This document shows positions 42,578-62,366 of a DNA stretch of 62,366 bases, in pieces. The notes beneath the pieces were generated by a model. It saw nothing but the letters and a program-made list of their open reading frames with translations. It was not told where the DNA came from and ran no database searches. The stretch lies in contig CAKZQO010000053.1 in the NCBI GenBank assembly GCA_937140905.1, positions 1 through 62,366 on the forward strand, given 5' to 3'. The DNA comes from an uncultured Spirochaeta sp. (GTDB taxonomy: Bacteria > Spirochaetota > Spirochaetia > DTKZ01). A program made the translations under genes and the position numbers. The stretch's first letter is position 1; the number at the start of each line of letters is the position of its first letter.

Positions 42578-42586
42578 CGAAACGCA

Positions 42587-42630: not shown

Positions 42631-42640
42631 TTTAAGGGTC

Positions 42641-43750: not shown

Positions 43751-43801
43751 CTGTCACTGCGATCGGCGCCGTGACGCCGAATCGTCGAGTCATGTTGATT
43801 C

Positions 43802-43910: not shown

Positions 43911-43913
43911 ACA

Positions 43914-44243: not shown

Positions 44244-44264
44244 TCCAGACCCCCAGATACCAGA

Positions 44265-45458: not shown

Positions 45459-45471
45459 ACGTCCCTCCTTT

Positions 45472-45744
45472 TTACAGTTTGTCTATCATCGATTGAATCT
45501 CGGCCTCGCTGAGACCGGACAGAGCGAACGGAGAGCTGGGGTCGAGCTGGTCTTCAAAGTCTTCGGGAAGAAGATCCTCAGGCGATTTTTGCACCCCGCC
45601 TCTAAGTACTTTGACGGTCCTGCTTTGGAGTAATGCCCGAAGGCGTTCTTTTAGAACAGGACTTTCTGTAGGATGTCTTTTTGTGTACTCGAACGCATTA
45701 AGCCAATCCTGTCGGGTCTGTAGGTACATGGGCAATCCTTTCAT
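45472..45744 (-). CDS. Phage hypothetical protein
   Basis: 90-aa ORF, in the same orientation and tightly packed between the fibre gene and upstream phage genes. Confidence 0.55.
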   Translation of the reverse strand: MKGLPMYLQTRQDWLNAFEYTKRHPTESPVLKERLRALLQSRTVKVLRGGVQKSPEDLLPEDFEDQLDPSSPFALSGLSEAEIQSMIDKL

Positions 45745-46148
45745 ATGTCCTCCTTAAAGCTTTTTAAGTATGTACGGATCTCACTGATCCTTTTCCTAGC
45801 CCTTTCTCGCTGGATGATCACCTCATTTGGAGGCTCCTTTCCATTGTCTAATTTGCGGATAATGTACCAGTCCGTCTGATTTAAATAATCCTGGTACAGC
45901 GACAGTTCTTTCTTCATCTGGATTTCAGGTGGGATAGGGGCAGGGTCGTATTGCAACGTTCCATCTTCTTTTATTACCCACAGCAACTCTCCGTCTTCTC
46001 CGACAAGATTAACTGGCAGAGGGCCTGACAACTCATTCTTAGATATCTGTACAACAGTAGTATCTTCAACTTCACGGGATAGAGTATAACCAGCTAGGTA
46101 CTGTCTACCGCAGATTTTTTTGATCTGGACAGAATAGATCGGCTTCAT
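45741..46148 (-). CDS. Phage hypothetical protein (possibly fibre-associated or a chaperone)
   Basis: 135 aa. Overlaps both neighbours by 4 nt. Confidence 0.55.
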   Translation of the reverse strand: MKPIYSVQIKKICGRQYLAGYTLSREVEDTTVVQISKNELSGPLPVNLVGEDGELLWVIKEDGTLQYDPAPIPPEIQMKKELSLYQDYLNQTDWYIIRKLDNGKEPPNEVIIQRERARKRISEIRTYLKSFKEDI

Positions 46149-46666
46149 GGTTTTCCTATATATAGCCTTCCAAAGGAGATAAACCTAGGATCATTCATTG
46201 AGTAGCTACGCTCAGATACGCCGTTGATTCCTTCTTCAGACTTGAGCGTAGAATCTATAAATACAATTCTATCCGCTTCCGTTTTTACAAATAAGGCCAC
46301 ATGAGATATACGGTTATCTTCTCCCATAAAAAGCAGATCTCCTGGGCCCAGCTCAGACAAGGAAAGTTCTTTTGTATATCTTTTTAGTCCATAAGAAGTC
46401 TCATCTTTAAATAGGAGAAAATATCCATAATCCCTTGTAGCATATTCATAACAGCGGATAACCAATCCCGAACAATCAACTACGATTTTCGGTAACGGAT
46501 CCTGCCCTCCCCATTGATAGCCTGCTCCCGCTTCAATGTATTTCCGAGCGTACTCAATTGCTTTTTGGCGTACTTCCTCAGGAGCAATAATCACATCATA
46601 GCTGTCCCTTATGGAACAGGACGATGTAGCCAATATGATAGAGACGACTAATAACACACCCTTCAT
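46145..46666 (-). CDS. NlpC/P60-family cell-wall hydrolase lipoprotein (phage-encoded)
   Basis: Start moved to the ATG at 46666 (MKGVLLVVSIILATSSC lipobox), directly after the upstream stop. Catalytic Cys context VVDCSGLV and His context ISHVALFV. Confidence 0.78.
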   Translation of the reverse strand: MKGVLLVVSIILATSSCSIRDSYDVIIAPEEVRQKAIEYARKYIEAGAGYQWGGQDPLPKIVVDCSGLVIRCYEYATRDYGYFLLFKDETSYGLKRYTKELSLSELGPGDLLFMGEDNRISHVALFVKTEADRIVFIDSTLKSEEGINGVSERSYSMNDPRFISFGRLYIGKP

Positions 46667-49233
46667 ATCAATATCCCCCGTTGACCGATAAATAACAGCT
46701 CCAACTCCTGTCCAGGCCAGTACTGGAATGATAGCTCTGATCCATTCGGCCCAACAGGAATAATTAACATCATAGAAGATCTTAAATAATCTACATAACT
46801 TCCCGTTAGATTCATCGATACGTAAGGAGTAAAGCAGTCCACAGGTCCTAGGTTGGAACCAAACGGCCGAAATGCTACTCGTGTGTTTCCCCACGCGACA
46901 TTTTGGGCTGGATTGTATGAGCAGTAAACGTCTAGAATTACACCTTTAATGTTAGTGTAGGATCGTCTGGCAATATTAACTGTGTACCATACTTGAGAAG
47001 TGGTGATGGGAGTGTTAACAAGGGTAACGCCTGGATCATTCCACCAAATCATGTGGCCCATATAATATTCACCATTCGCGATAGCTTGGTCCGGTATATC
47101 ATGGATTATCTTGTTTTGTGCGTCTAGCGCTTTTAATCCATCGATTGTAGAGATTCTGATTCTTCGGTTTATAGCATCCTTAATGTCGATCAGACCATCT
47201 GCAATCTTGAGCTGACCATTTGATCCTTGCCAGAAACCGGGGACTGCTTGTCCAGTATCCGTTCCATCCTCTGTGTAGCGGTTTCCACCTCTGATCGATC
47301 CTCCAGGTTGTAGTTTGATGTATTTAGAGAATAGCTTTTCTATGAAGGTATAATTAGATAAGTTTTCAATAAAAGTTTGATTTGCGGGTAGAGATTGAGA
47401 GAGCGGATCCGATCCGACAGGTGCGATCTTAGATACGTAGAATCGTTTGGATAATTGCATCGCTTTTGCAAACCGGAAGGAGCCAAGGGTACGATCTCCC
47501 CACTTTGCGTATAACGGTGAAAAGAGGCTCATGTTCTTGTGCGTTGCCAGAATATCCACATATCCTGCATCAATGTCCAATCGAGATACGTAGTAGGTTT
47601 GCTGGATCAGATAGCCTCGTACTCCGGAGGATTCTGCTACGCTCAAGTGCCAGTTTGAGGTATCTAGTTTATCCGCCAAGCGTACTTCTATCTGCGTTTT
47701 CGCATCCGATAGAGACACGTTTCCATTCCAGTCTGCATTCAGCGAACAGGATTCAGGGGTCAACTCTAAACGCGCAGCCCCCAACAGCGTCAACTCGTCT
47801 GCAGATCCCTCAGGTCCTTTGATAGTTTTTGCGAGGGAACGGGGTTGGGCAAGGGTGGGGGCAGCCAGGCCCACGCATCGGTAGTCGTAGACCTGGGTCT
47901 CTGCGTCAAACGACCGCTCCGTTAGTAGCGCCAGGGCATCGATGCCTGCGTAAGGGTCGATCAACCGGAGAATTGATCCGAGGGGTAGGGAGTAGTCTAG
48001 CTTGAAGCGGTACCGCCAGCAAGCGGAACGGATTCGCTCGGCACGGAAGGCACATAGCCTTCGTGCGGTGTCGCCGTCATGAATATAGAGGGCGTCGTAC
48101 CGGTCTACGGATGCGGGGTTAGGTTTTAGATCGTATCGCAGTACCACCTCTGCGGATCGATACACGACGTCGCCTCGAATGTTGCAATAGTAGATGTGGC
48201 GAGGGGAGATGTCGGTATTGCGGTAAGCAATCCTGGCGCGTCGATTTTCGAAGATGGCAACTTCCCGGTGAATGCCGAACTCGTACTTTTCCTCGATTGT
48301 GTGATTCTTCGTAAGCACAAGGGAGGAGAAATCTTTATTCACTTCCACCTCTCCTCGTTCATTAACACGGTGTGCCAGGGCCTTGTCATCGTACTCGAAC
48401 CAGGTTTCCTGGACGTTTGCTTCCTCGGGCCATAGGAATCCTGGTTGGATAGGCCATCCTGAACGCAAGCCATTGTCTCCGAAGGGCAAGTCTGCCATGT
48501 ACAGCAGGGTGTTCGTCCTGGACTTTAAGGGGTAGTAGGATAGTTCTACTGCATCTGCCTCTTTGGGCAGTTTCTCGATCTCCAGCGGGGCTTGAATGTC
48601 GGTCTCCGTGAGGAGGATGGATGGACTAGGTGTGTCGTACAGATATTGGAAAAGGACCAGTTTCCCATACGAATCGAACCGGTAAGTGAACCCATACTCA
48701 TAGAGGAGGGTGTCTAATGCGTCTTTAATCGTGCCCTCATCTACGGAAAATCCCTGCAGGACCCTGTCGATAGTTGTCGATAGATCGAACTCTACACCTG
48801 CTAGGCTGAGTAACCGATGAACGGCGCTTTGGGCTGGGTACAACGGATGGCAGACATAGGCATTTTCGATGACTAACCCGTCTGAGGGGGTAATGTTTCG
48901 TTCTAGCCTGTAAGTAAAGTCCTCTAGCTCTACCTCAATGTCTGCGACATCGGGCTGCCCCGATACCGAGGCGCCGTGGGATTGGATACGCAACGAGGAG
49001 GGAGCTATCCGACCAGTGAACTCTCGCACCCCCTCCAAATCCACGGTAGCTAGGACACCTTCCGCGGCAAGCAAGGTGAGTAGATCCGATGAGTAGCGGA
49101 ATACGACTACTCGAGTGCTCACCGCATGGCGAAACTCTTCGTTGCAAGCATAGTCTGTGGATCGGTAGGCTCGAACGAGCGCAGATACATCGTGTTCCTG
49201 GGTACCCACAATCAGTTTACAGGTGATCGTCAT
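46663..49233 (-). CDS. Phage tail-tip / distal tail protein (large)
   Basis: 856 aa, immediately downstream of the tape measure gene. Call is by position in the gene order. Confidence 0.65.
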   Translation of the reverse strand: MTITCKLIVGTQEHDVSALVRAYRSTDYACNEEFRHAVSTRVVVFRYSSDLLTLLAAEGVLATVDLEGVREFTGRIAPSSLRIQSHGASVSGQPDVADIEVELEDFTYRLERNITPSDGLVIENAYVCHPLYPAQSAVHRLLSLAGVEFDLSTTIDRVLQGFSVDEGTIKDALDTLLYEYGFTYRFDSYGKLVLFQYLYDTPSPSILLTETDIQAPLEIEKLPKEADAVELSYYPLKSRTNTLLYMADLPFGDNGLRSGWPIQPGFLWPEEANVQETWFEYDDKALAHRVNERGEVEVNKDFSSLVLTKNHTIEEKYEFGIHREVAIFENRRARIAYRNTDISPRHIYYCNIRGDVVYRSAEVVLRYDLKPNPASVDRYDALYIHDGDTARRLCAFRAERIRSACWRYRFKLDYSLPLGSILRLIDPYAGIDALALLTERSFDAETQVYDYRCVGLAAPTLAQPRSLAKTIKGPEGSADELTLLGAARLELTPESCSLNADWNGNVSLSDAKTQIEVRLADKLDTSNWHLSVAESSGVRGYLIQQTYYVSRLDIDAGYVDILATHKNMSLFSPLYAKWGDRTLGSFRFAKAMQLSKRFYVSKIAPVGSDPLSQSLPANQTFIENLSNYTFIEKLFSKYIKLQPGGSIRGGNRYTEDGTDTGQAVPGFWQGSNGQLKIADGLIDIKDAINRRIRISTIDGLKALDAQNKIIHDIPDQAIANGEYYMGHMIWWNDPGVTLVNTPITTSQVWYTVNIARRSYTNIKGVILDVYCSYNPAQNVAWGNTRVAFRPFGSNLGPVDCFTPYVSMNLTGSYVDYLRSSMMLIIPVGPNGSELSFQYWPGQELELLFIGQRGILI

Positions 49234-52200
49234 GCATACGCTCCTATTGCTCCAACGGGAAGCGTATTCCTTCGCTTCTTCTTTGCCATCGCAAGCAGGA
49301 TTGAGTCAGCTAGCTCATCCTGGGTGACCACAGATCCAGAGACGTACAATGTGATGTTCACCACCTCGGGGGTGGATGTAGAAGGGTTTTTAAGCACTAA
49401 TTCCCCCCTTCGGATCCCTTCGGCAAAGGTACGGGGCACGATCATCTCTCCTTCATGGACCTGCCCGAACATATCCTGAGGAATTCTCCACGCTCCCACA
49501 TCCCAGGAAAACAGCTTCTTGACTGTCTTGCCTGCTTTACGGGTAGCGTCTCCTACGAAATCGGCCGCTTTCTTTATATATCCTCCTGCCTGTGCTCCCA
49601 GGGCGGCTCCTGCGACAGTTCCTACGGGACCTAGAAAGCTCCCTAGCCCAGCGCCTAAGGCAGCCCCGACTAGGTTGTAGGGATTAAACCCACTGCTCAG
49701 CGCAGTTTGGGCACGAGTGGGCTGGGAGCCTCCGCTTGACAACTGATCTACTGTTCCCACGATTTTTACGTTTATCCCCTGGCTTAGTTGGTTGTAAATA
49801 GACTGGAGTGTCGCTAGCTGCGCCGCTTCCGCGGCAGCAAGCTGAGCAAGCCCTGCCTCCTTCTGTGCGTTGGCGGCCGCTACCCGTGCTTCGTATTCCG
49901 CCTCCCCAAGCGCACCTACCTCCAAGAGCTTGCGTAGGCTCGCGATGTTTTTCTGGTATGCGTCTTCGATCTCCCTGCGTCGCTGCGAGAAAGACTCCCG
50001 CACCCGATCCATCTCTTCGGATATCCTCTCCATTTTTTTGCGGATTTCTTCTTGCTCCTGGACGATCTGATCAGTTGTTTTCAATTTTTCCAGGTAGGGG
50101 ATGGAAACTCCCACCCAGCCCAATACCCAATTGATAGTCCGGATCACCCCGTTGACAATGTTTATAACCGCGTTACCGAAGGGAACGATCACCTGGTTAT
50201 TCAGCCATTCGAAAGCTCGCCCGATGAGACGGGCAGGAACAAGGGCGATCTGCAGGGCAGAGGACAGGATCCGAAGGAATAGCGCCGTTTGGCTGAGAAA
50301 GGGAGCGAGGGTCTGGGCCAGAGAGCGTCCGATTTGAAGAAGAACATCCACAATGGGTTGTAGGGCGTTGTTTAGCAGGGGTTCTAATAGCTTTCTAGCC
50401 CCTTCTAGAATAGTCTTAAAGGGGTTGAGAACCTTCTGTACGTTCTCGACAGAGAGGGCGAACTCTACGATCGCCTCAATGGCCATGGTGATTGGGTCTA
50501 TCGCGAAAGTGCCTGCAAAGCCAGCCATCTTACCTACTTCGCTTGATGCGGCCTGTGTTTGGAAGGTCTTGGCAGCGTAGGCTCCCCACTGTCCCTGCCG
50601 TGCAGCCAGGCGCCGGCTTTCCTCAAAAGCCCGTTTTGCCTCTTCTATCCGGGTTTCTGCAGCCTTCTTAGCTTCCTCTTCTTCGGTTTTGCGGATCTGT
50701 TCGGCATACCAAGCGGCAAGGCGTGCTTTCTGTTCTTCGGTTCCTTCGAACAGGGCAAGCTCCCGGTTCATCTGGACTCGTAGATCGTCCACCCTGGTTT
50801 CCGTGAGCCTGGCTTCGAACTCGGTAACCTTTAGTTCTTGCTCGATTCGCTCCCGAGCGGCTTTTCGTTCCTCTTCGATCCGCGTGGAGGCAATCAGCTC
50901 GGTGTAGTAAGCCGCTATCCGTGCCCGGGATTCTTCAGATCCTCTAAAGGAGGCAAGGGCACGGTCCCGTTCTACCTCCAAGTCGTCAATACGGGTTTGA
51001 GTAAGGCGAGCCAACTGTTCGCGCTCCGTAAGTGCAAGGGACTCTATCACCTGTTTTCGCCTGGCGTTGTAGTAGGCGTTGATTTCATCAATAGTCTTTT
51101 GATTTAGTGTTCCAATGTAGGCTGCAGCCGCTTCTTCGAGTTTCTTTTTCCTCTCGTACTCGATCTCTGCCTCGGGCCCTTTAGCCTGCGCCTGGAATCG
51201 CTCATAGGTTTCCGCCCACTGCTCTTTCCATTTGCCGGCGATCTCGTCTTTTTTCTCCTGAATCAACCGCTCTACAATGGCAATCTGCGCCTGGGTCTGC
51301 GACAGGAGTGCCCTGGTTGCCGCATCCTTAACCTTTTCCGCATGGAGGGCCGCAAGGTTAGAGCGCAGTGTGACGAGGGTAGCGTTCAACTCAGCCATGC
51401 TTTTGTCTTTCAGGCTTGCCTTGTAGGCCTCTAATGCAGCTCGTGCCTGGTCAATTGCCTGGGAGGTGTCACGGAAAGAGGAAGAACTGCTACGAGAAGC
51501 CTCGCCTGTTTGCGCCATCGCTTGAGCAGCCTTAGACTGGGAGTTTGCGTAAGCCACTACAGCCGCGGTTCCTGCCGCTACGGCCGCGATACCGGCTAGT
51601 AAAAGGGGGTTTAACATGGCCAGAGCTTTATTTACTGCCATAACTGCCGCAAACTTTGTCCAGTGCGCTGCGGCAGAGAGGGCTGTTTTTGCGGCTAGCA
51701 CCGTGAGAGCAGCCGACACTGCCGCGATGGAAAAGGCAAGGACTCCTTTCAGTACTGGCCCTGCTTGGGCAGCAGCCGAGGCCACCGTACCGATCGCATT
51801 AGCCGCCATAGTCAATAGCGGGGCCAAACCTTCCCCCATGGCCTCCATTAGATCGCCCACCGATTCCTGCATCCGCTTGAAGGCAACCGCGCTCGTCCCG
51901 CTCATGGATTGGGCCGCCCCTGCATAGAGACTGCCTACTAACTCAATGGCTTTGCCCGCCTTTAGCTCCTCTTCTGTGAGATCCTTTAACTGCGGGATCA
52001 GGCGGCCAATACGGCCCACCATGCCGCTGAGGGTTGCGGTGAGTTCCTGTACGCTGCCGGCCAGCTCTTCTCCCGTGACGGCCGAGAGGTCTGCGGCGAC
52101 GGTGAGGATTTGCCGTATCTGCGCCTCGCTTTTACCCTGCATGGCAAGCTCAGCGGCGAGCTGCTTTACATAATCGTCGCTTGCACCGGTAAGAGCCTGT

Positions 52201-52760
52201 AGCTGGGACGCGAACTCTGCCAGCCGATGCGCGCCCGCGGTATCTCCTCGCATCGCAAAGGCCATCTCGAGGCGTTTTACCGATTGCTCGGCCTGGGCAA
52301 AGGCAGTAACTGCCTCTATAGCGAAGCCAGAGATCTGCCGAGCCATAGCCGCAAACGCCCCACTCTGGGCAAGGGCACCGATCTTCGTCTCCAGCGTATT
52401 CGCCCCCTCACCCAGCTGTTCCAGCTTCTGGGCCGTTTCCTCATATTGGCGTTTTAAATCTTGTAGCTGCTCCCCCTGGGGATCCAGACCCTGATCAATC
52501 AGCTGCCGCATGGCCGCCTCCAGAGCCTGCTGCTTCTCCCGTAAGCCCTGGACCTCGGATCCCATGAGGCGAGCAAACTGGGTGGCGGATTGGATCTCTT
52601 TATTTAAGTTGGCTAAAACGGCCTTTGTCTGTTCAGAGGAGGGGCCAAGTGTTTTCACGTCTTGGCCGAGCTTTTTTAGGTCCTGCGATACGGTCTTCAG
52701 GCTGGAGAGGGCTTTCTGCACTTCTATCTGGATTTCCAGTCTAAGCTTTTCTTCGGTCAT
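49230..52760 (-). CDS. Tail tape measure protein
   Basis: 1176 aa. Ala/Gln/Glu-rich coiled coil with central hydrophobic segments. Lies downstream of the chaperone pair. Confidence 0.9.
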   Translation of the reverse strand: MTEEKLRLEIQIEVQKALSSLKTVSQDLKKLGQDVKTLGPSSEQTKAVLANLNKEIQSATQFARLMGSEVQGLREKQQALEAAMRQLIDQGLDPQGEQLQDLKRQYEETAQKLEQLGEGANTLETKIGALAQSGAFAAMARQISGFAIEAVTAFAQAEQSVKRLEMAFAMRGDTAGAHRLAEFASQLQALTGASDDYVKQLAAELAMQGKSEAQIRQILTVAADLSAVTGEELAGSVQELTATLSGMVGRIGRLIPQLKDLTEEELKAGKAIELVGSLYAGAAQSMSGTSAVAFKRMQESVGDLMEAMGEGLAPLLTMAANAIGTVASAAAQAGPVLKGVLAFSIAAVSAALTVLAAKTALSAAAHWTKFAAVMAVNKALAMLNPLLLAGIAAVAAGTAAVVAYANSQSKAAQAMAQTGEASRSSSSSFRDTSQAIDQARAALEAYKASLKDKSMAELNATLVTLRSNLAALHAEKVKDAATRALLSQTQAQIAIVERLIQEKKDEIAGKWKEQWAETYERFQAQAKGPEAEIEYERKKKLEEAAAAYIGTLNQKTIDEINAYYNARRKQVIESLALTEREQLARLTQTRIDDLEVERDRALASFRGSEESRARIAAYYTELIASTRIEEERKAARERIEQELKVTEFEARLTETRVDDLRVQMNRELALFEGTEEQKARLAAWYAEQIRKTEEEEAKKAAETRIEEAKRAFEESRRLAARQGQWGAYAAKTFQTQAASSEVGKMAGFAGTFAIDPITMAIEAIVEFALSVENVQKVLNPFKTILEGARKLLEPLLNNALQPIVDVLLQIGRSLAQTLAPFLSQTALFLRILSSALQIALVPARLIGRAFEWLNNQVIVPFGNAVINIVNGVIRTINWVLGWVGVSIPYLEKLKTTDQIVQEQEEIRKKMERISEEMDRVRESFSQRRREIEDAYQKNIASLRKLLEVGALGEAEYEARVAAANAQKEAGLAQLAAAEAAQLATLQSIYNQLSQGINVKIVGTVDQLSSGGSQPTRAQTALSSGFNPYNLVGAALGAGLGSFLGPVGTVAGAALGAQAGGYIKKAADFVGDATRKAGKTVKKLFSWDVGAWRIPQDMFGQVHEGEMIVPRTFAEGIRRGELVLKNPSTSTPEVVNITLYVSGSVVTQDELADSILLAMAKKKRRNTLPVGAIGAYA

Positions 52761-53067
52761 TGATTTCTAGCTGCTCCTGCTCCATCCGATTCTGTTCAAG
52801 GTTGAAAGCTCGCAGAACCACTACGGCCACCTCTGGCCAGTCCATCCACCCCCCTGGGTACGGTGGATAGGGTGCGAGGAGTTTTGTCTGCACGTACCAG
52901 CTATAGGCCTGATAGAACTGTTCATTCACATACAGAGGGATTTGTCGGTAGCTGATAAAGATCGGCTTACCCTCTTCATCCAGCACTCCGGTAGGGACAA
53001 GACTGTCCCGTTTCTCGGGCCGGATTTTTGCCTGGTGCTTACCGTCCAGGAATAGCCGGTAAGCCAC
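52741..53067 (-). CDS. Tail assembly chaperone, frameshift-extension (T-like) part
   Basis: 108-aa ORF in the -1 frame relative to the upstream chaperone. It is open from the slippery site onward. Confidence 0.6.
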   Translation of the reverse strand: MAYRLFLDGKHQAKIRPEKRDSLVPTGVLDEEGKPIFISYRQIPLYVNEQFYQAYSWYVQTKLLAPYPPYPGGWMDWPEVAVVVLRAFNLEQNRMEQEQLEINDRRKA

Positions 53068-53069
53068 CC

Positions 53070-53462
53070 TCAGTTTTTTTCGTCCACCTTGGAGTCGAGT
53101 TCTGAGCGGAAAAACTCTGCCAGTTCATCGATGAGCTCGTCCAATGCAGCGGGGGCCTCCCACAGCCCTTTGGCGTCGGTGATTATCTTCCTCTCCCCAT
53201 CAATGGTGCACACCAGCCCCTCAATCCGCACCAGCATGCCGTCAATAAGGGTCTTGCGGTCCTGCACCACTACCGTCTCCCCGCCCTGCACGTTGCCCTG
53301 GGCATCGTAACGGAACCGCAGCTCAGGCCGCGGAAGAAGTCTCGCTTTCATTGCTACCGTGGGGTTACGATACGTGACCACGATCCGGTCCGATTCCGCT
53401 GCCTCCCGATTCCCGCGAAACTTCGGGACATAGGTTAATTTGGTGGAAAACTGTAGCTCCAT
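53070..53462 (-). CDS. Tail assembly chaperone (G-like)
   Basis: 130 aa, located between the major tail and tape measure genes. Confidence 0.7.
   Translation of the reverse strand: MELQFSTKLTYVPKFRGNREAAESDRIVVTYRNPTVAMKARLLPRPELRFRYDAQGNVQGGETVVVQDRKTLIDGMLVRIEGLVCTIDGERKIITDAKGLWEAPAALDELIDELAEFFRSELDSKVDEKN
53073..53080 (-). other. Programmed -1 ribosomal frameshift slippery site A_AAA_AAC
   Basis: The minus strand reads GAC GAA AAA AAC TGA. The -1 frame then reads AAA AAA CTG AGG GTG GCT TAC, which equals the start of ORF 52741-53067. Confidence 0.6.
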
Positions 53463-53474
53463 CCTTGTCCTCCG

Positions 53475-54146
53475 TTACAACACCCGTTCATAGTACACGG
53501 GATCTGCCACGAAGCGGAACTTGCTGGTGAACTCCTGCTTGTTCCCGCTTTCGGCTCCTAGATTCACCCCGTATAGCTCGATCCTCGCAAATAGGAAGGC
53601 GTAGGTTTCTCCTGTTTTGTTGGTGTCTCGGATTACTCCCCGGATGTATAGGGGGCTAGAGTTAATCTCGCTCACGGTAACGGTGGAGCCTGATCTTTTC
53701 ACGATCTTCACAAATTGATTCAGGAGCCCTCCCGCTTCCCCAGTAACCCCCAGGGTGAAGATTCCCTTCACTTGCCCCTCCGCATCCGCTTTTCCCTTAC
53801 GGTAGGTTAGTACCTTGTTCACCAGTCGCGTTGTTTCTATTTCTTTCGCGCTGAAGGAAGCACTCCATGAGGTAGCATCCAGGAAGGGCGTGGCAATCGC
53901 CTTCTTTGCCTTGTCCCCGACGACCATTATTTCCGTACCATCGGCAGGGAATAGGTCTCCCACGTTCAAGGCGCCGAATATGCTTCCGGTGGATGCTTTT
54001 GCGGTAATCAGCCATTCGCCTTTTCCTTTGCCGGTGCCTCCCGCATGGGTGTCAAAGGTTTTAGTTCCGTCCCCGACCTTCTCTTCGTCAAACTCCACCC
54101 GTTCGATCGTCGCATCGTCTCCGATAAGAGTTAAATACTCTGGCAT
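53475..54146 (-). CDS. Major tail (tube) protein
   Basis: 223 aa. Call is by gene order, directly upstream of the chaperones. Confidence 0.68.
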   Translation of the reverse strand: MPEYLTLIGDDATIERVEFDEEKVGDGTKTFDTHAGGTGKGKGEWLITAKASTGSIFGALNVGDLFPADGTEIMVVGDKAKKAIATPFLDATSWSASFSAKEIETTRLVNKVLTYRKGKADAEGQVKGIFTLGVTGEAGGLLNQFVKIVKRSGSTVTVSEINSSPLYIRGVIRDTNKTGETYAFLFARIELYGVNLGAESGNKQEFTSKFRFVADPVYYERVL

Positions 54147-54149
54147 ACC

Positions 54150-54356
54150 TTATTCCTCCCTCTGTTTTTTTCTCGGGCTAAAGCCCATATCAATACCTTC
54201 CGGCTTGCCGCTAGGGTGTTCCTTCAGTTCCACCCGCTCCTCCGCTTCCGCTCCCAATAGGGCGCTGCGGTAGCGGAGGGCCGTCAGTCGCCCCTGCTCA
54301 TACACGTGCGTCACCACACAATCCGCCGCGCCCTTGATACGTTCTAGATCATCCAT
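54150..54356 (-). CDS. Phage hypothetical small protein
   Basis: Start moved to the ATG at 54356 (MDDLERIKG...), preceded by GGGGGAGGAAG. The track ORF extends into the upstream gene. Confidence 0.5.
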   Translation of the reverse strand: MDDLERIKGAADCVVTHVYEQGRLTALRYRSALLGAEAEERVELKEHPSGKPEGIDMGFSPRKKQREE

Positions 54357-54367
54357 ACTTCCTCCCC

Positions 54368-54811
54368 CTATGTAAAAAAGATCGTTGCTTTCCACTCTTC
54401 TCGCGCCCACACAACGGTGTCCTCCGCTGGATCCTCGAATACTGCATCCTCCGGACTGGTGGTCCAAACAATCCGAGTGTTCGGGATCGTGTTCCCTTGC
54501 GTGTCTTCTAGCCTTCTGACATCCTGGCTCTGATCGATTAAGAACTCACTGGCAGATAGAAAGCGCCGCAGAGCTGTATCGCTATCAATTCGTGCAGCAA
54601 GCAGAAGGGCTACCACAAGGGCTCGGCTATCTTCCGTGCGTGCAGCCTGCGTGCGCGGAGGGGGGAGCACCTTTCGGGGCAGTAGCCGTAAGGATATGCC
54701 GGGCTCCCGTACCGCCAGGGGAGCACAGAGCACTTTCAGCTTAATTCCCTCCGCCTCTGTCCTGCGTTTTAACTGCGCTTCGAATAACTGCAACACCTCG
54801 GATGCCTGCAC
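54368..54811 (-). CDS. Head-tail joining / tail completion protein (hypothetical)
   Basis: 147 aa. Call is by position only. Confidence 0.5.
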   Translation of the reverse strand: MQASEVLQLFEAQLKRRTEAEGIKLKVLCAPLAVREPGISLRLLPRKVLPPPRTQAARTEDSRALVVALLLAARIDSDTALRRFLSASEFLIDQSQDVRRLEDTQGNTIPNTRIVWTTSPEDAVFEDPAEDTVVWAREEWKATIFFT

Positions 54812-54815
54812 CGCC

Positions 54816-55379
54816 TTACCCCTCTACCACCGACCGTTTTAGGTAATCCGTAAGCATTCGTACCGACTCGGGCGGAAGCTTCATGAATGGTCGGGCTGGA
54901 ATGGTTACCGAGGTTCTCAAGACGAACAGCGGCATCGGCTCCTTGCCTCCCTTCTTCCGTCCCATTACTACGTTTCCCTGCCTCCAGATCGACCAGCCCG
55001 AACCCTTCAGTTGATCCAGCATCACCCGAGGCTGTAGATCAGTACCCCGCATCAGGGTCCGTACCCAGGGACCCGCGGGGATTGCAAGAGCCTTGCTCTT
55101 CACCGGCCGCACGACGCCCCCGTTGTGCAGAAGTTCTGCGGCCGGGTGGTTTGTTCCGACCTCTACGTTGTTTCCCTTTACCCGGTAGGTAATAGAGGAA
55201 AGGAGTTGCCCCCGGTCCCGTAGGGGTTTGGATCCCTGTTTCACCGATACGGTGAGTGCGGCGTTCGGAACCCAGGAACCCTGTTCAATGTTCTTCTGCA
55301 CCAGGCTCACTGCCACTCCCCCCAGACCTTCCAGTAAGGCGGGATTTCGAAGTTTCTGTTCCAATACCTCCAGAATCAT
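54816..55379 (-). CDS. Phage virion morphogenesis protein (Mu gpG-like)
   Basis: 187 aa. N-terminal pattern ...KNIEQGSWVPNAALTV...KPLRDRGQLLSSITY resembles the virion morphogenesis family. Confidence 0.65.
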   Translation of the reverse strand: MILEVLEQKLRNPALLEGLGGVAVSLVQKNIEQGSWVPNAALTVSVKQGSKPLRDRGQLLSSITYRVKGNNVEVGTNHPAAELLHNGGVVRPVKSKALAIPAGPWVRTLMRGTDLQPRVMLDQLKGSGWSIWRQGNVVMGRKKGGKEPMPLFVLRTSVTIPARPFMKLPPESVRMLTDYLKRSVVEG

Positions 55380-55831
55380 GGCCAGTCCTTTCGTTTAGGC
55401 ACCGTAAGAGCGCCCAGCGCCGGCTTTTCCTCTAAGGGCTTTTCCGCCTCTGGATAATTCCCGTAGGTGGCAACAATAAGATCCTTCGCATGGATGCGAT
55501 ACTCTCGGCCTGCCTCTGCATTCCCTAAACTTAGGTGTAACTCGTAGATCGTGAGCAGGATCGCCACCTCCCGGTCAATCGATACATCCAGATTCAGGAC
55601 TCGGCCCAGGCGTGCATAGACAGCCGATGCTCGTACTACGGCCCGCTGCATCGCTATCGTCACCCTATCCTCGGATCCATCGGCGAGCTGCTCGTACAGC
55701 CGGGTGGATAGCCGGTCCTTAATTTCAGCTGCCGTTACGGGGGTGCCCACTACGGCGGGAACCTGCTCATAACCTCGGACCCCTGCCGATCCCTCTTGCC
55801 CTAGTAGATCGTCGAAATCTGTCAGCCTCAC
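55376..55831 (-). CDS. Head-tail connector protein (Mu gp36/DUF1320-like)
   Basis: GTG start at 55831 overlaps the upstream TGA (GTGA). The track ORF start at 55900 overlaps the M15 gene. Confidence 0.5.
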   Translation of the reverse strand: MRLTDFDDLLGQEGSAGVRGYEQVPAVVGTPVTAAEIKDRLSTRLYEQLADGSEDRVTIAMQRAVVRASAVYARLGRVLNLDVSIDREVAILLTIYELHLSLGNAEAGREYRIHAKDLIVATYGNYPEAEKPLEEKPALGALTVPKRKDWP

Positions 55832-56289
55832 GCCACCTCCCAGTGCGGGCAATCCCACCCCAACGTGGCCGCCGGATGACTCTTCCAGTCCCCTCCCCAC
55901 ACAAACCCATGTTTACGCGCAATCTTACCTAGCGATAGCCACACGCCCTCTGGCGCATTCCACAACAACCGCCCCGTTTCAGCCTCAAACGGTACAAGGT
56001 CCAGCGCAAGCCCGTCCTGGTGCTTGCTACGCTTTAGGATCCCGTCCGCATGGGTTATTACACTCCCCGCTTCCTGCAGGGCCGGCAGCCCCGCCGCCGA
56101 CCGCACCTGGTTTACCTCTTCTAAGCCACAGCGGCCCTGGGCAAAGTAGGCAAGCTGCCGCAGGATGGGTCGACGGGTTTCGGTAATGAACACATCAAAG
56201 CTTAACTGGACGAGATCCGCCTCTGCTTCAAGGAATCTCCGTCTTGCTTCAGGGGCTAAGCCATCGATCTTAGATCTACCGTACACCAT
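55828..56289 (-). CDS. Peptidase M15 (VanY / L-alanyl-D-glutamate endopeptidase-type) cell-wall hydrolase
   Basis: 153 aa. Zn-ligand pattern SKHQDGLALD ... DCPHWE. Confidence 0.78.
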   Translation of the reverse strand: MVYGRSKIDGLAPEARRRFLEAEADLVQLSFDVFITETRRPILRQLAYFAQGRCGLEEVNQVRSAAGLPALQEAGSVITHADGILKRSKHQDGLALDLVPFEAETGRLLWNAPEGVWLSLGKIARKHGFVWGGDWKSHPAATLGWDCPHWEVA

Positions 56290-56377
56290 CTCCTCTCATC
56301 CCCCTTAGAGCTAGTGAGGCTGCCCGGGATTTCTATAATCAATCTTGTCTTGGCTCCCGGACAGCCCAATGGGTGGC

Positions 56378-57349
56378 CTAGGTCAATACAACCGACTTTA
56401 CTAGGCCTTTCACGTTGGGTACCGGAAGGGGTTTCGATTCCCCAATGATCTTCACCCCGCTGGGATCCTGGGTGTTCACCGGTTGCGCATAGAAGGGCAG
56501 AGCCACCAACCCCGCATCCAAATTGTCCAGCGCGGCATAGATCAGCTTGAACCCGCTAGACCGATCCACTGCCAAAACAGTTTTAGCTGGAATTGCCGAA
56601 ACCGCCTGCCCCGTGTTTAGGTCAATGTAGGTAGCTGGCAGTAACTGGATCTTTGCCACCCCTCCGATACTGATGAAATCCGCTCCCACCTGAGCAATGG
56701 CGCTGTTGGGCAGTGCACCGATCTTCTCCACTAGCGCCGCATACACATCAAACCCACAGAGAAATACCACATCCATGGCCGGAGCGCTCTTTTTGAGCGT
56801 ATCCATCATTTTTCCAAGGGTCTTGATGATGTCGCTCACCTTTGTGTTCGCTTCGTCCCATTTCTTGCTCTCCGTAACCGATGCGGGGGTGCCGTACGCG
56901 ATATCGTAGGTGAGAAGCGCTCCTCCTTCGCCCCGTAGGGGATAACTGATGGTGCCCGTTAAGGACTGGGCCGCCAGGGCCTCGGCGGTCGAGCGGCACG
57001 CACGGCGCAGAGTATCGATCTGATTGTCGATGTACTGCTGCTGACCCTGTGGATCCAGTAGCTTCAGGTTGTTCAAATCCGCAGCCGATAGGAACACCGA
57101 AGGATTCACCGGCTGCACTTCAATCATCGTCACTGATCCGTCTGCTGGAACAAGAGGATAGGATTGGCTACCCCTCCGCACCACGGGGATATTCCCCGAT
57201 GGAAGCCCCAGATCTCTGTATCCTACTACGGGAAACGGATGGTTTACCCGATTCGGATAGATCAGATCCATTACTGGAGTCCGCAGTTCCGGAAGCCTTT
57301 GTAACGTGTCTACAATCGCTTCCCGCGTGAAGAACTTCTTTAAGTCCAT
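56378..57349 (-). CDS. Major capsid protein (lambda gpE-like family)
   Basis: 323 aa. Follows the decoration and scaffold genes. The N-terminal region resembles the capsid E family. Confidence 0.8.
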   Translation of the reverse strand: MDLKKFFTREAIVDTLQRLPELRTPVMDLIYPNRVNHPFPVVGYRDLGLPSGNIPVVRRGSQSYPLVPADGSVTMIEVQPVNPSVFLSAADLNNLKLLDPQGQQQYIDNQIDTLRRACRSTAEALAAQSLTGTISYPLRGEGGALLTYDIAYGTPASVTESKKWDEANTKVSDIIKTLGKMMDTLKKSAPAMDVVFLCGFDVYAALVEKIGALPNSAIAQVGADFISIGGVAKIQLLPATYIDLNTGQAVSAIPAKTVLAVDRSSGFKLIYAALDNLDAGLVALPFYAQPVNTQDPSGVKIIGESKPLPVPNVKGLVKSVVLT

Positions 57350-57364
57350 CTCTTCCTCCTCCTG

Positions 57365-57715
57365 TTACACCGCAAAGATTCCCAAGCTCTCGAGCACCGC
57401 AAGATCTGCCGCATTGGGCGCACTCGACCCTACCCGAAGCTTCTCTCGAACCACCGTCCCGTGCCGCAGCACAACCGCCGCATTGTCCCGGCTAGTATCC
57501 ACCTCTTGGGCCAACACCCCTACACACACATTCAGGGGGGCTGCCCCCTGTGGATCATACGCCACTACGTCCCCGTTACTATCTTTCGCTACCAAAAGCC
57601 CCGCGGCCAACACCCCATTGTTCGCCTTCGCTTTCAGAGTCTTCAGTACCGGAGGGTGAATAAGGCTCACTATAGATGAGGCCCCATACTCTAACGTTCC
57701 CAATACCGCATTCAT
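57365..57715 (-). CDS. Head decoration protein (gpD-like/DUF2190)
   Basis: 116 aa. Size, position and the Gly/Ala/Val-rich beta pattern fit. Confidence 0.65.
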   Translation of the reverse strand: MNAVLGTLEYGASSIVSLIHPPVLKTLKAKANNGVLAAGLLVAKDSNGDVVAYDPQGAAPLNVCVGVLAQEVDTSRDNAAVVLRHGTVVREKLRVGSSAPNAADLAVLESLGIFAV

Positions 57716-57732
57716 TTACTCCTTCCTCCTTA

Positions 57733-58713
57733 TCACACATGCTTTAGTAACCGCCCCAATTCCAGGGGTTTCTCATTCTGTGCAGGATCCGAGAGCTGCA
57801 TCCGGCCCTCCTGTACAGGCCGGGGTATCGATTCAATTAGCTCCCGCAACAGATCCAGCCATCCCACGCTCCGTTTCGCCTCGCCCTCCGACAGCTCTAT
57901 GCTTCCACCTAGCGGCAGCCGATCCGCCAGCGCTAGCAGGAGCCCTTCCTTCGCTTTGGGCACTCGGCCCTCCGCCGCTCTCTGCAGCTCTACCTTCTTT
58001 ACGGCCCGTAGCTGTGCTGCCAGCGCCGACTGATTCTTCTCAGAATCTGTTAGCTCGATCACTTCCGGATACATCCGACTCACCACACCCAGCCGTTCTT
58101 GTAACTGATTCACTTCCCGACTGAGGCTCTCGCTCTTCTTCTGTTCCGCCTCCAGCTTCTCGAGCGCCTGCTCCAGTGTCATGTCCGCTCTCCCCTTTTC
58201 TTGAGATGCCCCCGCTCCTGCAGGGGTGTCCGACAACGCGAGATTCGCAGCTGATACGGACGGCAGTTGGATCACGCCTTCGGAGTCGGTTGCTGCCAAC
58301 GCCGCCGGTTGGGTAAGGGTTGTCTGAATATTGTTCACTAAGTCTTTTATGGCAGGTGGCTCTTCCCCGAGGTAGGCCACGTGGTGCAAATACATCTTCC
58401 CGTCTACAGCCCGCCGCTTCGCCCCAATGGACACATCCGGAAAGTACCCCTTGTCCACTGCCTCGGCTAGCTCCTCCTGCTCCTCGATGGTGCCAATCAA
58501 GGTTTTCGTTGTCTCGTCGTAGGTGACGGCCACCACGTTCCCCAACCGGGGACGGGAAGGATCCAGCCAGTGCCCATTCAGGCTCACCGGAGCCTTCCTC
58601 ACCTCCGGAAAGGTTTCAGCTATCTCCCGCAGATCCCTTTCCGTCACCACCTGCGGATTGTCTACCGAGCCGAAAATCCCCACCTTCGCCAGCTCACGGA
58701 TGCGTTGTCTCAT
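57733..58713 (-). CDS. Head maturation protease / scaffolding protein (Mu gpI-like position)
   Basis: 326 aa. N-terminal globular part followed by a C-terminal coiled coil (LEKLEAEQKKSESLSREVNQLQERL). Confidence 0.6.
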   Translation of the reverse strand: MRQRIRELAKVGIFGSVDNPQVVTERDLREIAETFPEVRKAPVSLNGHWLDPSRPRLGNVVAVTYDETTKTLIGTIEEQEELAEAVDKGYFPDVSIGAKRRAVDGKMYLHHVAYLGEEPPAIKDLVNNIQTTLTQPAALAATDSEGVIQLPSVSAANLALSDTPAGAGASQEKGRADMTLEQALEKLEAEQKKSESLSREVNQLQERLGVVSRMYPEVIELTDSEKNQSALAAQLRAVKKVELQRAAEGRVPKAKEGLLLALADRLPLGGSIELSEGEAKRSVGWLDLLRELIESIPRPVQEGRMQLSDPAQNEKPLELGRLLKHV

Positions 58714-58992
58714 GCCACAAACGTAGCAGATCCCGGCCAGGTTTGCTGGAATTGGGGATAGGCAGGGGGTCGCAAAAAACGGCCCAAAAAAGGGGGTATT
58801 TTCCGGGGGGGGGTGATTTATACTACCCCGCCCCTTCGGATCGATTGTAGCGTTAGATTGCTGTTAGAAAATCGATTTTTAGAATGGGTCTGTGATCTAC
58901 GATTGGGGGTTTCTGCTGTGGGGGTTGACAATGGGACGGCATATAATGATACTTTATATTGGAAGGTGCGTCCAGCGGCACCCACCACGCCT

Positions 58993-59025
58993 GGGGCATG
59001 TTCTGACATGCCCCTTGTATTTTTT
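58993..59025 (+). terminator. Hairpin plus T-tract on the plus strand, abutting the portal-MuF stop
   Basis: ggggcatg-ttctga-catgcccc (58993-59014) followed by ttgtatttttt. The T-run is present only in the plus-strand reading. Confidence 0.45.
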
Positions 59026-59028
59026 AAG

Positions 59029-61668
59029 TTATTTTCTGATCATTTCCTGTTTTAACGGTGTAATGATCCATATAAGGCTTGCCTTTCCTCGGTTCACTCT
59101 ATCATGCGATAGCGTCTTAGCATCATCAAAGAGAGCGTCAGGAAGGTATAGTATTATGTTGTCTGATTGCTTTGTTCTCAACGCTTGGACTATGCTATTT
59201 TTTGTTCCTGCTGTAGGTGTTTTCACCTCCCACACCTCCCCATCAACCATAAGATCCGGACTCTTCAGCAAATCACTCCTAGGAAGCAGCTTCACCATTC
59301 TTCCTTCTCCTGCCAAGCGTTGCGCAATGGGTTCCTCCGGCAGTTTCTTGCCTTTATAGCTTTCATGTTTATACAGCTTACCACCAGATGGATATTCCTG
59401 CACTAGCTCAAACCCTTCTAGAGATTCAGGGTTGTACAGCCTGACACTTCTAAACCCGGCTTTATCGGCAAAGTCTTTGAGATCCTTCATAATACCGTAT
59501 CGAAGGGCCCGTTTTGCCATTTCGTCCGTTAGTTCATAGAACGATCCACTTTTTATCGGATTCCCCCCAAACCCTTCCTGCGGCTTAAAGGTTTTCCGTA
59601 GTTTCGCCATGGATAGATTCTGCACAGGGACCTGAGCGATCTCCTCCTCATAAATCCCCCGCACCGTGGTGCGGCAGTTGAAATGGAAGGGCGGCCAATG
59701 GTCCTCCCAGAATGGGTGATCGGCTGGAAGCACCAGGCCCACCAGGGGGCGGCAGATGGAGCTGGTCCGCTCATCCTCCAGCACCATGAGGGCATAAGCC
59801 CGGGGTTTGGCTCGATCGAACTGCATCCGGCGGCCCGCATTGTAGGCGGTCTGGATATTGGTTCGGTACACTGTTTCCCAGTACCCGGGCTTGAGGGTTG
59901 CACCTTCCGACTCCGCAATCGCCTTCACATCCGCCCAGGCCCGCTCAAAGCCTTCGCCCTTCTCGAGCGTGTGTATCAACCGTCCCCGGACCGCTTCGAT
60001 ATAGTCGCATGAGGTAAGCTTTGCCAGGGTAAAGGCCCGAAAGGCCAGCTTCGGTTCCAGGGCCTGCCATTCTGCTTTGGTCAGGCTTACCCGGGCTTTC
60101 AGAAAGTGAATCGCCTCTTCGAAGGGGAGGGGATGGTATTCGGTCTCATCAGCGAGCGTAAGGCGCTGGCCCCGGCCCGCGTGATCCATCCCCTCGAGAA
60201 GCGCCGCGGCCAGTACCTGCTCGGTTCGCCGTATGAGCTCTGGCTCCGTGTCCGGAAACGGAGCCCCGCGAAGCACTTCTACCCCCGGGGCCGTCCCTGC
60301 GGATGAAAGGGAGGCGATCCACCGCGCCACCGCCTTGCCGATCAGCGGTAGGACAAGCGCCCGGGCCCGCTCTGCCAACCGGTCCAGCTCCGCCAGTTTC
60401 GTACGCTCATCCGCCTCCAGCTCTAAAAGAGGGGCTTGCGGACTTTTTTTTTTACTCTCTGTGTCTGCCATTGCAAGAGAGAGCAAATCCTGGGGCTGCC
60501 CCCCCGGCTTCAGGAACACATCCTCTTCACCTGCGGGCTGTGGCAACCCATACCGGCTATACAACTCAGCCCGGGACACAGGTATCCCCCGATCAATCGC
60601 CTGCACCAACTCATCCCACGTGGCGTGCTCATCCAGATCAAATCGCACCTGTGGCTGCCACTCCCCCGGCCCGTAGTTCAGCTCCACTACATAGGACACA
60701 AGCCGCTGGAGCGCTTCCGACAACTCCCGGCAGATTCCTTTGGCAAGGGTTTTAAGCACATCCCTATGCACCGAGGCCTGGGAGCGACTCCCATACTCCG
60801 CCTCCTGGGTGGCCAGGCTCTGGCCGGTGATGCCGTAACTGATTTGCTGGTCACACCACTCCATCAGAGAGCGGAATTCGCTCACCTTCTCGGGACTTGT
60901 AAGAAGCTTCACCTCTTTTATGTTCGCCAGAGCCGCCCCCGAACCCGACTGTACCGTGGACAGAAGCTCCGACAGCCGCAACGCCCGCTCCCGCACCCGA
61001 TCCTCCGGCTCGCTCGTGTCAAACAAGGCAAGAATTGAGGGAACCGAAAACTTCTCGGCAGCCAGAATCCAAAACTGGCTGCCCGCTTTCTTGAATTTCC
61101 AGGCCCAGTAGCAGGACTTTAGCGCGCTGGTGCCGTAGGGGTTCTCCGCATCTTTGTCGTAACGATACACTAGCCATTTGTACGGCTGGTCATAGAGATC
61201 AATTAGCTCACCTGTGAGCGTATCCTTGTATTTCAACCGACCTTCCACATCGAAAACGAACCGCTCAGGCTTGCGCAGCACCACATCCTCGACGACCCAC
61301 CAGCCATCCTGGTTTTCCCACACCAGTTCCACGACGCTATACCCATATTCGACCGCTGATAGAAGACGCTTCTCAAGCCCATAGAGCAGGGTTGGATGCA
61401 GATTCTTCTGTACGGTTTCCAGTACGGCCGGCCGCGCCTCTGCCTGCTCGATCCGGGGGACGAACTCCAGGACGGAACTCTTCAGGAGCGCCAGCAGGCT
61501 CTTAATCCGGGGGTCGGTACGCATCTCCCGGTACACGGTGATCCGTTCCCCCGAGTCCCGCAGGACTTCATCGGGATTGGGCATATAGCCTACAAAGGAG
61601 GAAAACAGATCCATAGCAGGAATCACTCGCATCGACAGCCGTTCATCAGCTCGATCGTTTTTCTTCAT
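59029..61668 (-). CDS. Fusion protein: Mu-like portal (DUF935) + MuF/SPP1-gp7 head morphogenesis domain + C-terminal PD-(D/E)xK nuclease-like domain
   Basis: 879 aa. The N-terminus has a DUF935 pattern (YREMRTDPRIKSLL). The MuF core is YRTNIQTAYNAGR...DERTSSICRPL...PPFHFNCRTTV. The C-terminal ~130 aa carry SPDLMVDGEVWEVK (59221-59259). Confidence 0.85.
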   Translation of the reverse strand: MKKNDRADERLSMRVIPAMDLFSSFVGYMPNPDEVLRDSGERITVYREMRTDPRIKSLLALLKSSVLEFVPRIEQAEARPAVLETVQKNLHPTLLYGLEKRLLSAVEYGYSVVELVWENQDGWWVVEDVVLRKPERFVFDVEGRLKYKDTLTGELIDLYDQPYKWLVYRYDKDAENPYGTSALKSCYWAWKFKKAGSQFWILAAEKFSVPSILALFDTSEPEDRVRERALRLSELLSTVQSGSGAALANIKEVKLLTSPEKVSEFRSLMEWCDQQISYGITGQSLATQEAEYGSRSQASVHRDVLKTLAKGICRELSEALQRLVSYVVELNYGPGEWQPQVRFDLDEHATWDELVQAIDRGIPVSRAELYSRYGLPQPAGEEDVFLKPGGQPQDLLSLAMADTESKKKSPQAPLLELEADERTKLAELDRLAERARALVLPLIGKAVARWIASLSSAGTAPGVEVLRGAPFPDTEPELIRRTEQVLAAALLEGMDHAGRGQRLTLADETEYHPLPFEEAIHFLKARVSLTKAEWQALEPKLAFRAFTLAKLTSCDYIEAVRGRLIHTLEKGEGFERAWADVKAIAESEGATLKPGYWETVYRTNIQTAYNAGRRMQFDRAKPRAYALMVLEDERTSSICRPLVGLVLPADHPFWEDHWPPFHFNCRTTVRGIYEEEIAQVPVQNLSMAKLRKTFKPQEGFGGNPIKSGSFYELTDEMAKRALRYGIMKDLKDFADKAGFRSVRLYNPESLEGFELVQEYPSGGKLYKHESYKGKKLPEEPIAQRLAGEGRMVKLLPRSDLLKSPDLMVDGEVWEVKTPTAGTKNSIVQALRTKQSDNIILYLPDALFDDAKTLSHDRVNRGKASLIWIITPLKQEMIRK

Positions 61669-62366
61669 CGTCGGTACCCTCGTAAGGTTTGCTGGGCCAG
61701 GCTAGGGGCGATGCGCCGGATGGGTGCCACCTGGGGAAGTTCGGTCGCTTTGGTGATTGCCCCCATTGCATATGCCAGCGCATCCGGTAGGTCATCAAAC
61801 CGACCTTTAGGAAAACTGGTAAGCTCCTCGATTAGCTCTTTATTGCCACGATCCCGGAAGCGGATTATGCCGTTTTCGATTAAAGGCGACAGAGAGCGCA
61901 CCCGCAGGACTTTGCTTTCGGTTCCCGCTTTTACGGTTTTGATAGGCAGGTACACGTTCTCAGCTGCGGCCATTCGCATGACGTACCGTGCATAGATATT
62001 CGTGAAGGACACTTCTTCCCAAGCAATGAGGATAAACTTGAACCGCCGGTGCTTGGTAATGAGTTGAGTCACCGTCTCGTCCTCGGAACAGGTGGCTGCC
62101 CAGGCGTCCACCTCCCAGATCGTTCCCACTCGGTCCACCCCCACTGTAACAATCGCGGTGTGGTCGTGCTTGCCTGCCGCCCAGCCGACATCGGATGCTG
62201 CAAGGCTGTCGTAGTAGGTCGCCTTCGAGGTCTCGACGATGCGTTCGAGGCTGACATACCGCCCGACATCATGCCCCAGGCGGTGTAGCAGCAGGTTGGT
62301 CAGCAGCCGCGCCATCCGGCCATTGCCGTCTGGGAAGGGGTGGATGCAGAGGAAGTCGTGGACGTA
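61665..62366 (-). pseudogene. Chimeric ORF: Fic-domain core fused in frame to a terminase large-subunit nuclease domain (5'-partial)
   Basis: The minus-strand frame is open to the window edge. It reads YVHDFLCIHPFPDGNGRMARLL (Fic motif, 62307-62342) ...YYDSLAASDVGWAAGKHD | HTAIVTVGVD...IAWEE...FDDLPDALAYA (TerL RNaseH-like nuclease). No TerL ATPase domain is present. Confidence 0.7.

Follow-up and report, generated by a model that had tools for sequence, protein, structure and literature searches.

An in-frame Fic–terminase open reading frame at the tip of a spirochaete contig is very probably a technical chimera

Introduction

The right-hand end of a contig from an uncultured Spirochaeta sp. 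carries an open frame in which the active-site motif of a Fic protein is followed, with no intervening stop, by the nuclease part of a phage terminase (TerL). Is this a gene for a protein of new architecture, the scar of a deletion, or a join made outside the cell? The original prediction, made from the letters of the sequence, regarded a deletion scar or a contig join as the simplest reading, while allowing that the frame could be expressed. The window analysed here is the whole of contig C53 (62,366 nt), which belongs to a metagenome-assembled genome (MAG; G000) of 324 contigs and 3.57 Mb, with an N50 of 16 kb, a completeness of 98% and a contamination of 3.6%. The features discussed below are collected in Table 1.

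Table 1. Position of the Fic and terminase segments, and of the prophage to which the latter belongs, in the window
Feature	Position	Strand	Basis or remark
Portion of the Mu-like prophage on C53, DGR to tail/head genes to TerL-C	42578..62181	(-)	continues on C74 and C80; phage end TG... at ~42578, by CCAGT
Portal-MuF-toxin gene downstream of TerL	59029..61668	(-)	Portal_Mu 6e-71, Phage_Mu_F 2.7e-13, CdiA_C 1.2e-8
C-terminal part of the prophage TerL, residues 344-514 of 514 plus stop, without GVDP	61665..62181	(-)	89% protein / 80% DNA identity to the intact TerL of C111; phrog_38 profile ~547-714
Shared 22-nt stretch GGCGGCAGGCAAGCACGACCAC, coding (W)AAGKHDH; crossover zone of the Fic and TerL parents	62160..62181	(-)	three-way nucleotide alignment
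Foreign Fic-gene fragment, 185 nt, equivalent to residues ~191-252 of a 350-aa Fic	62182..62366	(-)	99% protein / 93% DNA identity to P0001/L001
Fic active-site motif HPFPDGNGRMAR	62307..62342	(-)	read from the sequence; Pfam PF02661, E 1.8e-8

Results

Two partial domains in one open frame

A single frame is open on the minus strand from position 62366 to a stop at 61665; as the original prediction had it, there is no internal stop. The frame encodes 233 residues, and both protein families are matched by profile. The Pfam Fic profile (PF02661) aligns to ORF residues 1–27 with its positions 67–93 of 93 (E 1.8e-8), and the phage Fic-like family phrog_5978 to residues 3–60; for residues 52–215 the matches are to phrog_38, a TerL family (E 3e-24), and to Pfam Terminase_6C. 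The Fic motif lies exactly where it had been placed, and its HPFPDGNGR segment (62316–62342) agrees with the Fic/DOC active-site motif HPFx[D/E]GN[G/K]R. The predicted post-motif helix is present too (...YYDSLAASDVGW), with a 99% match to 350-aa Fic relatives across the 62 Fic-specific residues.

Neither domain is whole. The contig stops eight residues ahead of the Fic motif; the 62 Fic-specific residues are all that precede its end, and the complete Fic core fold is absent, only profile positions 67–93 of the 93 being represented. The Fic C-terminal domain is also absent, GKHDH being followed by TerL sequence in the ORF, as opposed to ...LPFTEYLLG... in the intact relatives. On the terminase side, the N-terminal ATPase domain is missing from the 233-residue ORF, and the nuclease domain, which had been described as complete, has lost its first conserved motif. 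All ten intact TerL relatives examined (that of contig C111 in the same MAG, seven IMG/VR loci and two database proteins; ORFs of 517–555 aa from stop to stop, 514–523 aa as called proteins) read F-x-G-[VI]-D-P-A-x-G-K-H-D-x-T-A, with GVDP or GIDP in 10/10, whereas the chimera reads S-D-V-G-W-A-A-G-K-H-D, the Fic residues DVGW replacing G-[VI]-D-P and the conserved Asp being lost. In the chimera, Pfam Terminase_6C (PF17289) is matched only from profile position 9 onwards, and the score of 22.5 bits falls short of the cut-off of 22.6; the intact copy is matched from position 2, with 33.5 bits.

The fusion is not seen elsewhere in the data searched. A phmmer search with the 233-aa protein against 1.84 billion (1.84e9) representative proteins gave 3235 matches; none of the best 150 of these spans both parts, each covering the Fic or the TerL part alone, and the four alignments that extend beyond residue 67 are to ordinary or frameshifted Fic fragments. 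The exact 233-aa protein is absent from a collection of 15 billion (15e9) proteins, and the same junction, sought in 60 related genomes, was found in none (0/60). The suggestion of an expressed new Fic–nuclease architecture thus finds no second example in the public data searched, in addition to the missing Asp motif.

The terminase gene is divided between two contigs

The missing half of the terminase was found in the same MAG. Contig C111 carries an intact TerL of 514 aa (...RYFAGVDPAAGKHDHTAIVTVGVD...) in a second copy of the packaging region that is ~80% identical to the one on C53. TerL residues 1–340 form the end of contig C74 (5155 nt) and are 86% identical to the C111 protein; the terminase part of C53 covers residues 344–514 and is 89% identical to it, a comparable divergence. 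The last sequence of C74 is ...TTTGCGGGG (FFAG), the TerL homology of C53 opens at GGCGGCAGG, and the gap between the two is only ~8 nt (VDP). The arithmetic is consistent, 340 + 3 (VDP) + 171 residues giving 514, the length of the C111 TerL, and the coverage of the phrog_38 profile is complementary: 259–541 on C74 (E 5.6e-57) and ~547–714 on C53, against 257–715 for intact C111. There is no foreign sequence on the C74 end.

When the joined TerL sequence was used as a query, the relatives found were at most 89% identical and all ~514 aa long, with Treponema-named ones among them, and the seven best database matches are also of 514 aa. The protein search contained no identical intact copy, and a 42-mer from the TerL side, taken to find the same phage variant elsewhere, has no exact match in metagenome_contigs or viral_contigs.

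Downstream of TerL, the start codon of the portal-MuF gene overlaps the TerL stop (ATGA), and this arrangement indicates that the packaging module around the C-terminal part of TerL is, as judged from its gene content, normal. The portal gene itself combines Portal_Mu and Mu F with a C-terminal CdiA_C domain (PF18451, E 1.2e-8), an architecture of the MuF polymorphic-toxin type; the C111 copy of this gene has a different C-terminal extension.

A Mu-like prophage spread over four contigs

Positions 42578–62181 of C53, followed by the reverse complement of C74, C80 and the reverse complement of C64, make up a complete Mu-like prophage of ~31.5 kb. Assembly-graph neighbours share exact overlaps of 77 nt: at its start C80 overlaps both C74 (start) and C111 (end), and at its end it overlaps C44 and the reverse complement of C64. 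C74 encodes the N-terminal part of TerL, TerS (phrog_426), small ORFs and the C-terminal end of a repressor, whose HTH part is on C80 together with a 672-aa ORF in the position of the transposase, a MuB-like AAA ATPase and Mu Gam. An additional ORF of 591 aa lies on C74 (reverse-complement coordinates 3017–4792, minus strand), between the small ORFs that follow TerS and the repressor, in a region of low GC content (~0.41).

The host junctions read ...CTCC CCAGT/TGTAACG... on C53 and ...AATAACA/CCAGT TTAAGG... on the reverse complement of C64, the prophage ends being TG..CA and the target duplication the 5-bp CCAGT. Joining the two flanks restores a host ORF for an ABC binding protein, to which a paralog on C44 is colinear; the remaining two-thirds of this interrupted gene lie at 117–755 of the reverse complement of C64. 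A second, diverged copy of the prophage is inserted elsewhere (C44), and C111 is part of it, with ~80% identity in the late region. C80, a 6.8-kb early region, appears to be common to both prophage copies as a collapsed repeat. These junctions and gene contents show an ordinary, complete Mu-like prophage that happens to be split over four contigs.

The Fic segment is of foreign composition

The nearest public Fic protein (P0001, 350 aa) is 99% identical over all 67 residues compared and continues, after the shared peptide, with its own C-terminal sequence (...YYDSLAASDVGWAEGKHDH/LPFTEYLLG...). The codons of the segment on C53 are those of another kind of genome: the Fic tip has a GC content of 0.627 and a GC3 of 0.82, compared with 0.56 and 0.63 for the C-terminal TerL part and a genome GC of 0.496, and equally GC-rich 185-nt windows make up 0.6% of genome windows. 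The tip is, therefore, compositionally foreign to the genome in which it was found. The contigs that carry the Fic relatives L001, L086 and L087 are all of 64–67% GC, and the last two, the closest relatives whose gene neighbourhoods were examined, sit in type I restriction-modification operons of the order hsdM-hsdS-fic-hsdR. In these operons the 350-aa Fic gene lies between hsdS and hsdR (6221–7273 in L086, 2092–3144 in L087), with a 4-nt overlap between the hsdS stop and its own start.

A tblastn search of the MAG with the full Fic and its neighbours revealed neither the rest of the Fic gene nor an hsd operon, an unrelated 26% HsdM match aside, and the Fic gene is absent from all 60 related genomes (60/60). 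Genomic islands with a deviating GC content can be real and nevertheless fail to bin, so that the absence of the remainder from the MAG does not by itself prove that the segment is foreign. The exact parent of the segment was also sought, and a 40-mer of the Fic tip has no exact match in genome_contigs or metagenome_contigs.

The join falls on a stretch that both genes encode

Only 185 nt separate the join from the end of C53. The original prediction placed it at GKHD/HTAIV; nucleotide homology between C53 and the intact TerL of C111 reaches 62181, which makes AAGKHDH common to TerL and Fic and moves the breakpoint by a few codons, to W/AAGKHDH. The alignment therefore places the crossover inside 62160–62181. 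The microhomology that had been suspected at a shared Asp/His is real, and larger than first thought, comprising 22 nt that code for AAGKHDH.

In the three-way nucleotide alignment, C53 and the nearest public Fic gene are identical at 21/22 nt of this stretch, 16 nt of them in an exact run. C53 has TGG GCG GCA GGC AAG CAC GAC CAC followed by ACC; in the Fic relative the sequence is TGG GCG GAA GGC AAG CAC GAC CAC, followed by TTG. In protein terms, the Fic parent is of the form ...GWAEGKHDH/LPF and the TerL parent ...DPAAGKHDH/TAIV, both coding for A-x-GKHDH at the join, and one Fic relative (P0006) itself carries AAGKHDH. The motif is GW.[EGS][GKQR]H[DN] in the Fic relatives, and PA[AT]GKHD[HRQ] in all TerL relatives. 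The frame stays open across the join, since the common bases are translated into one and the same peptide in Fic and in TerL. The exact Fic parent would be identical to C53 over at least 21, and probably all 22, of the shared nucleotides, the nearest relative differing at 1/22.

Other contig tips in the same assembly

Contig tips were screened for open frames of foreign GC3, and the right tip of contig C48 (33169–33467) was flagged. It contains a second in-frame chimera, of a DctM TRAP permease with the C-terminus of SecY. DctM is matched at residues 24–196 of this ORF (profile 1–176 of 413) and SecY at residues 190–257 (profile 242–306 of 306), the two matches overlapping on GGYIPGI, for which the 21 nt GGCGGCTACATCCCCGGCATC code. 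This join has 278 nt between it and the contig end, and the GC3 is ~0.9; the ~27 DctM paralogs in the MAG instead continue after ...PG[ILV] with a membrane helix in low-GC codons. The rise in GC3 begins ~36 codons ahead of the join, and there may be more than one join at this tip. Two further tips, the left of C279 and the right of C179, have open frames in which GC3 drops abruptly from 0.85–0.95 to 0.5 at ~60 codons from the tip, the tip part of C179 being a YheO-like PAS_6 domain; these may be further chimeras.

Adapter sequence is also present. The start of C217 (1 to ~75) consists of adapter with the index GATCAG and poly-A fused to genomic sequence, which we take to be complete Illumina TruSeq indexed-adapter read-through, and the last 15 nt of C2 are adapter. 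The reads were thus incompletely adapter-trimmed before assembly.

Exact overlaps of at least 15 nt between contig ends are far commoner than chance. Their lengths form a continuum of 12–21 nt (29 pairs), after which come one overlap of 32 nt and the seven 77-nt overlaps of the assembly graph. This pattern points to low coverage as the cause of most breaks in the assembly, and to the joining of anything with more than ~21 nt in common; it suggests that the smallest k of the assembler was ~21. The two chimeric overlaps, 22 nt in C53 and 21 nt in C48, are both at this threshold. The 29 overlapping pairs are probably true neighbours across low-coverage gaps, and as such usable for scaffolding; neither the TerL end of C53 nor that of C74 overlaps any other contig in the MAG. 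Between tips and interiors, the difference in simple GC enrichment is weak (2–3 fold), the screen by GC3 and open frames being the more informative; overall, high-GC or high-GC3 tips are modestly enriched over interior sequence (2–4 fold), in small numbers.

Discussion

Origin of the Fic–terminase frame

Taken together, these observations make it very probable that the Fic–terminase frame is a technical chimera at the tip of the contig and not a gene, and that it was assembly or library preparation, in silico or in vitro, that produced the join, as opposed to an event in a cell. The join is close to the contig tip, the two TerL halves are complementary, the prophage to which they belong is complete, the Fic segment is of foreign composition, the join falls on a stretch shared by both parents, and other tips of the assembly are artefactual. 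Of the two simple readings offered originally, the contig join is favoured by the position at the tip of C53, the presence of the N-terminal half of TerL on C74, the composition of the Fic part and the 22-nt shared stretch. The deletion scar was rejected, since C74 and C80 carry the ATPase half of TerL and the early genes that it supposes lost, and these complete the prophage. A repeat-induced break between the two phage variants was also considered and rejected, these being only ~80% identical and having no common 77-mers at the site.

The proposed course of events is as follows. The real genome would contain a Mu-like prophage with an ordinary 514-aa TerL, in which the assembly broke at a low-coverage gap, C74 ending at residue 340 and the genuine C53 sequence beginning at residue 344. 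The free end of C53 would then have started with GGCGGCAGGCAAGCACGACCAC, coding for AAGKHDH, and the same or nearly the same 22 nt would have been present in the Fic gene of an unrelated high-GC organism in the same sample; the coincidence presumably arises from two conserved peptide motifs, GW-A-x-GKHDH in Fic and DP-A-A-GKHDH in TerL, written in similar codons. From here two routes may be envisaged. A multi-k de Bruijn assembler, with a smallest k of ~21, could have extended C53 by ~185 nt into Fic; alternatively, a template-switch or ligation chimera in a library molecule could have added the ~185 nt of Fic. Points against a technical origin are that a foreign extension of 185 nt exceeds a single 150-nt read, so that at least two such reads or longer ones would be required, and that the enrichment of high-GC or high-GC3 tips in this assembly is modest.

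The alternative that survives best, though we regard it as unlikely, is a real recombinant formed in vivo, in which a horizontally acquired Fic gene and the phage TerL recombined in some of the cells, illegitimately or by short homology, at the 22 nt coding for AAGKHDH. The product would be a Fic-N::TerL-C pseudogene in a prophage variant that is defective. Short homologies are where mosaic joints and deletions of phages form, and the join indeed sits at a genuine one; the lack of any overlap between the TerL ends of C53 and C74 and other contigs of the MAG, and a Fic arm longer than a single 150-nt read, would also fit an event of this kind. Against it, both the donor gene and its hsd operon are missing from a 98% complete MAG and from the 60 relatives, and the tip is of foreign composition. 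The N-terminal half of TerL and the rest of the prophage are present, the element being complete, and the Fic arm ends after 185 nt, although the N-terminal part of Fic should be fully covered whether the molecules sequenced were recombinant or parental. The unrelated DctM::SecY chimera and the adapter at other tips of the same assembly likewise speak for a technical origin. If the recombinant were nonetheless real, it would be a caught-in-the-act case of illegitimate recombination, driven by a coincidence of motifs and inactivating a prophage, with a high-GC donor whose Fic is associated with type I restriction-modification.

A real insertion, in which a foreign segment or mobile element with a truncated Fic gene lies between TerL residues 340 and 344 and both contigs break inside it, is much less probable still. 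It would explain why C74 and C53 do not overlap and why ~8 nt of TerL are unaccounted for; it is opposed by the end of C74, which is free of foreign sequence, and by the position of the join, exactly on a stretch coded by natural Fic and TerL genes, as expected for a homology-guided join but not for the boundary of an element. No features of an insertion element were seen, and the MAG has no further Fic or hsd sequence. Finally, a functional, selected Fic–nuclease fusion protein is scarcely credible, since the open frame of 233 aa and intact Fic motif that would speak for it are set against the lack of a second example in the relatives or the best 150 of the 3235 matches (1.84e9 representatives), the loss of the Fic C-terminal domain, a nuclease without its GVDP Asp motif and with a Pfam score under the cut-off, and only 62 Fic-specific residues before the contig end.

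Consequences for screens of assembled genomes

On the preferred reading, that of a technical chimera, the true gene is an ordinary terminase in a prophage, the Fic–terminase frame has no biological significance, and its value lies in quality control. Screens of MAGs for novel fusions or domain architectures would take up a clean, in-frame Fic–nuclease protein, and screens for prophage completeness would wrongly call the element truncated. More generally, where two conserved peptide motifs of unrelated proteins happen to use similar codons, they can provide the ~21 nt of identity at which short-read assemblies or libraries stitch foreign sequence to contig ends, with a product that looks like a precise fusion. 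In this assembly the last few hundred bases of contigs are not trustworthy.

Comparison with known systems

The terminase part closely resembles the TerL of other spirochaete Mu-like prophages (phrog_38; 512–514 aa): over residues 344–514 it is 89% identical to its paralog, and the portal-MuF gene follows it on C53 with the same ATGA overlap. It differs in that the C53 copy is without the ATPase domain and GVDP, both of which are supplied by C74 and the 8-nt gap. The Fic part resembles the 350-aa Fic proteins of type I restriction-modification operons, with a 99% match over 62 Fic-specific residues, HPFPDGNGR included. Unlike these, it comprises only ~185 nt, without the N-terminal two-thirds, the C-terminal domain or the hsd neighbours, and its GC3 is that of an organism of 64–67% GC, not of this genome. 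The join is in frame and at a short common sequence, in which it is like the mosaic joints and deletions of phages; it is unlike them in that there is no sign that donor and recipient shared a cell, and in that the supposedly deleted material is in the assembly.

The frame also resembles the contig-end chimeras of short-read de Bruijn-graph (SPAdes-type) metagenome assemblies, with a join within ~200–300 nt of the end, two organisms and a short exact common stretch; another chimera and adapter read-through mark further tips of this assembly. The chimeras reported from metagenomes assembled with SPAdes lie at contig ends, and in that study they formed between highly similar genomes (PMC8172020). 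The present case differs from those in that the common sequence is of ~22 nt and comes from two unrelated conserved peptide motifs, with the result that the chimera looks like a clean in-frame fusion.
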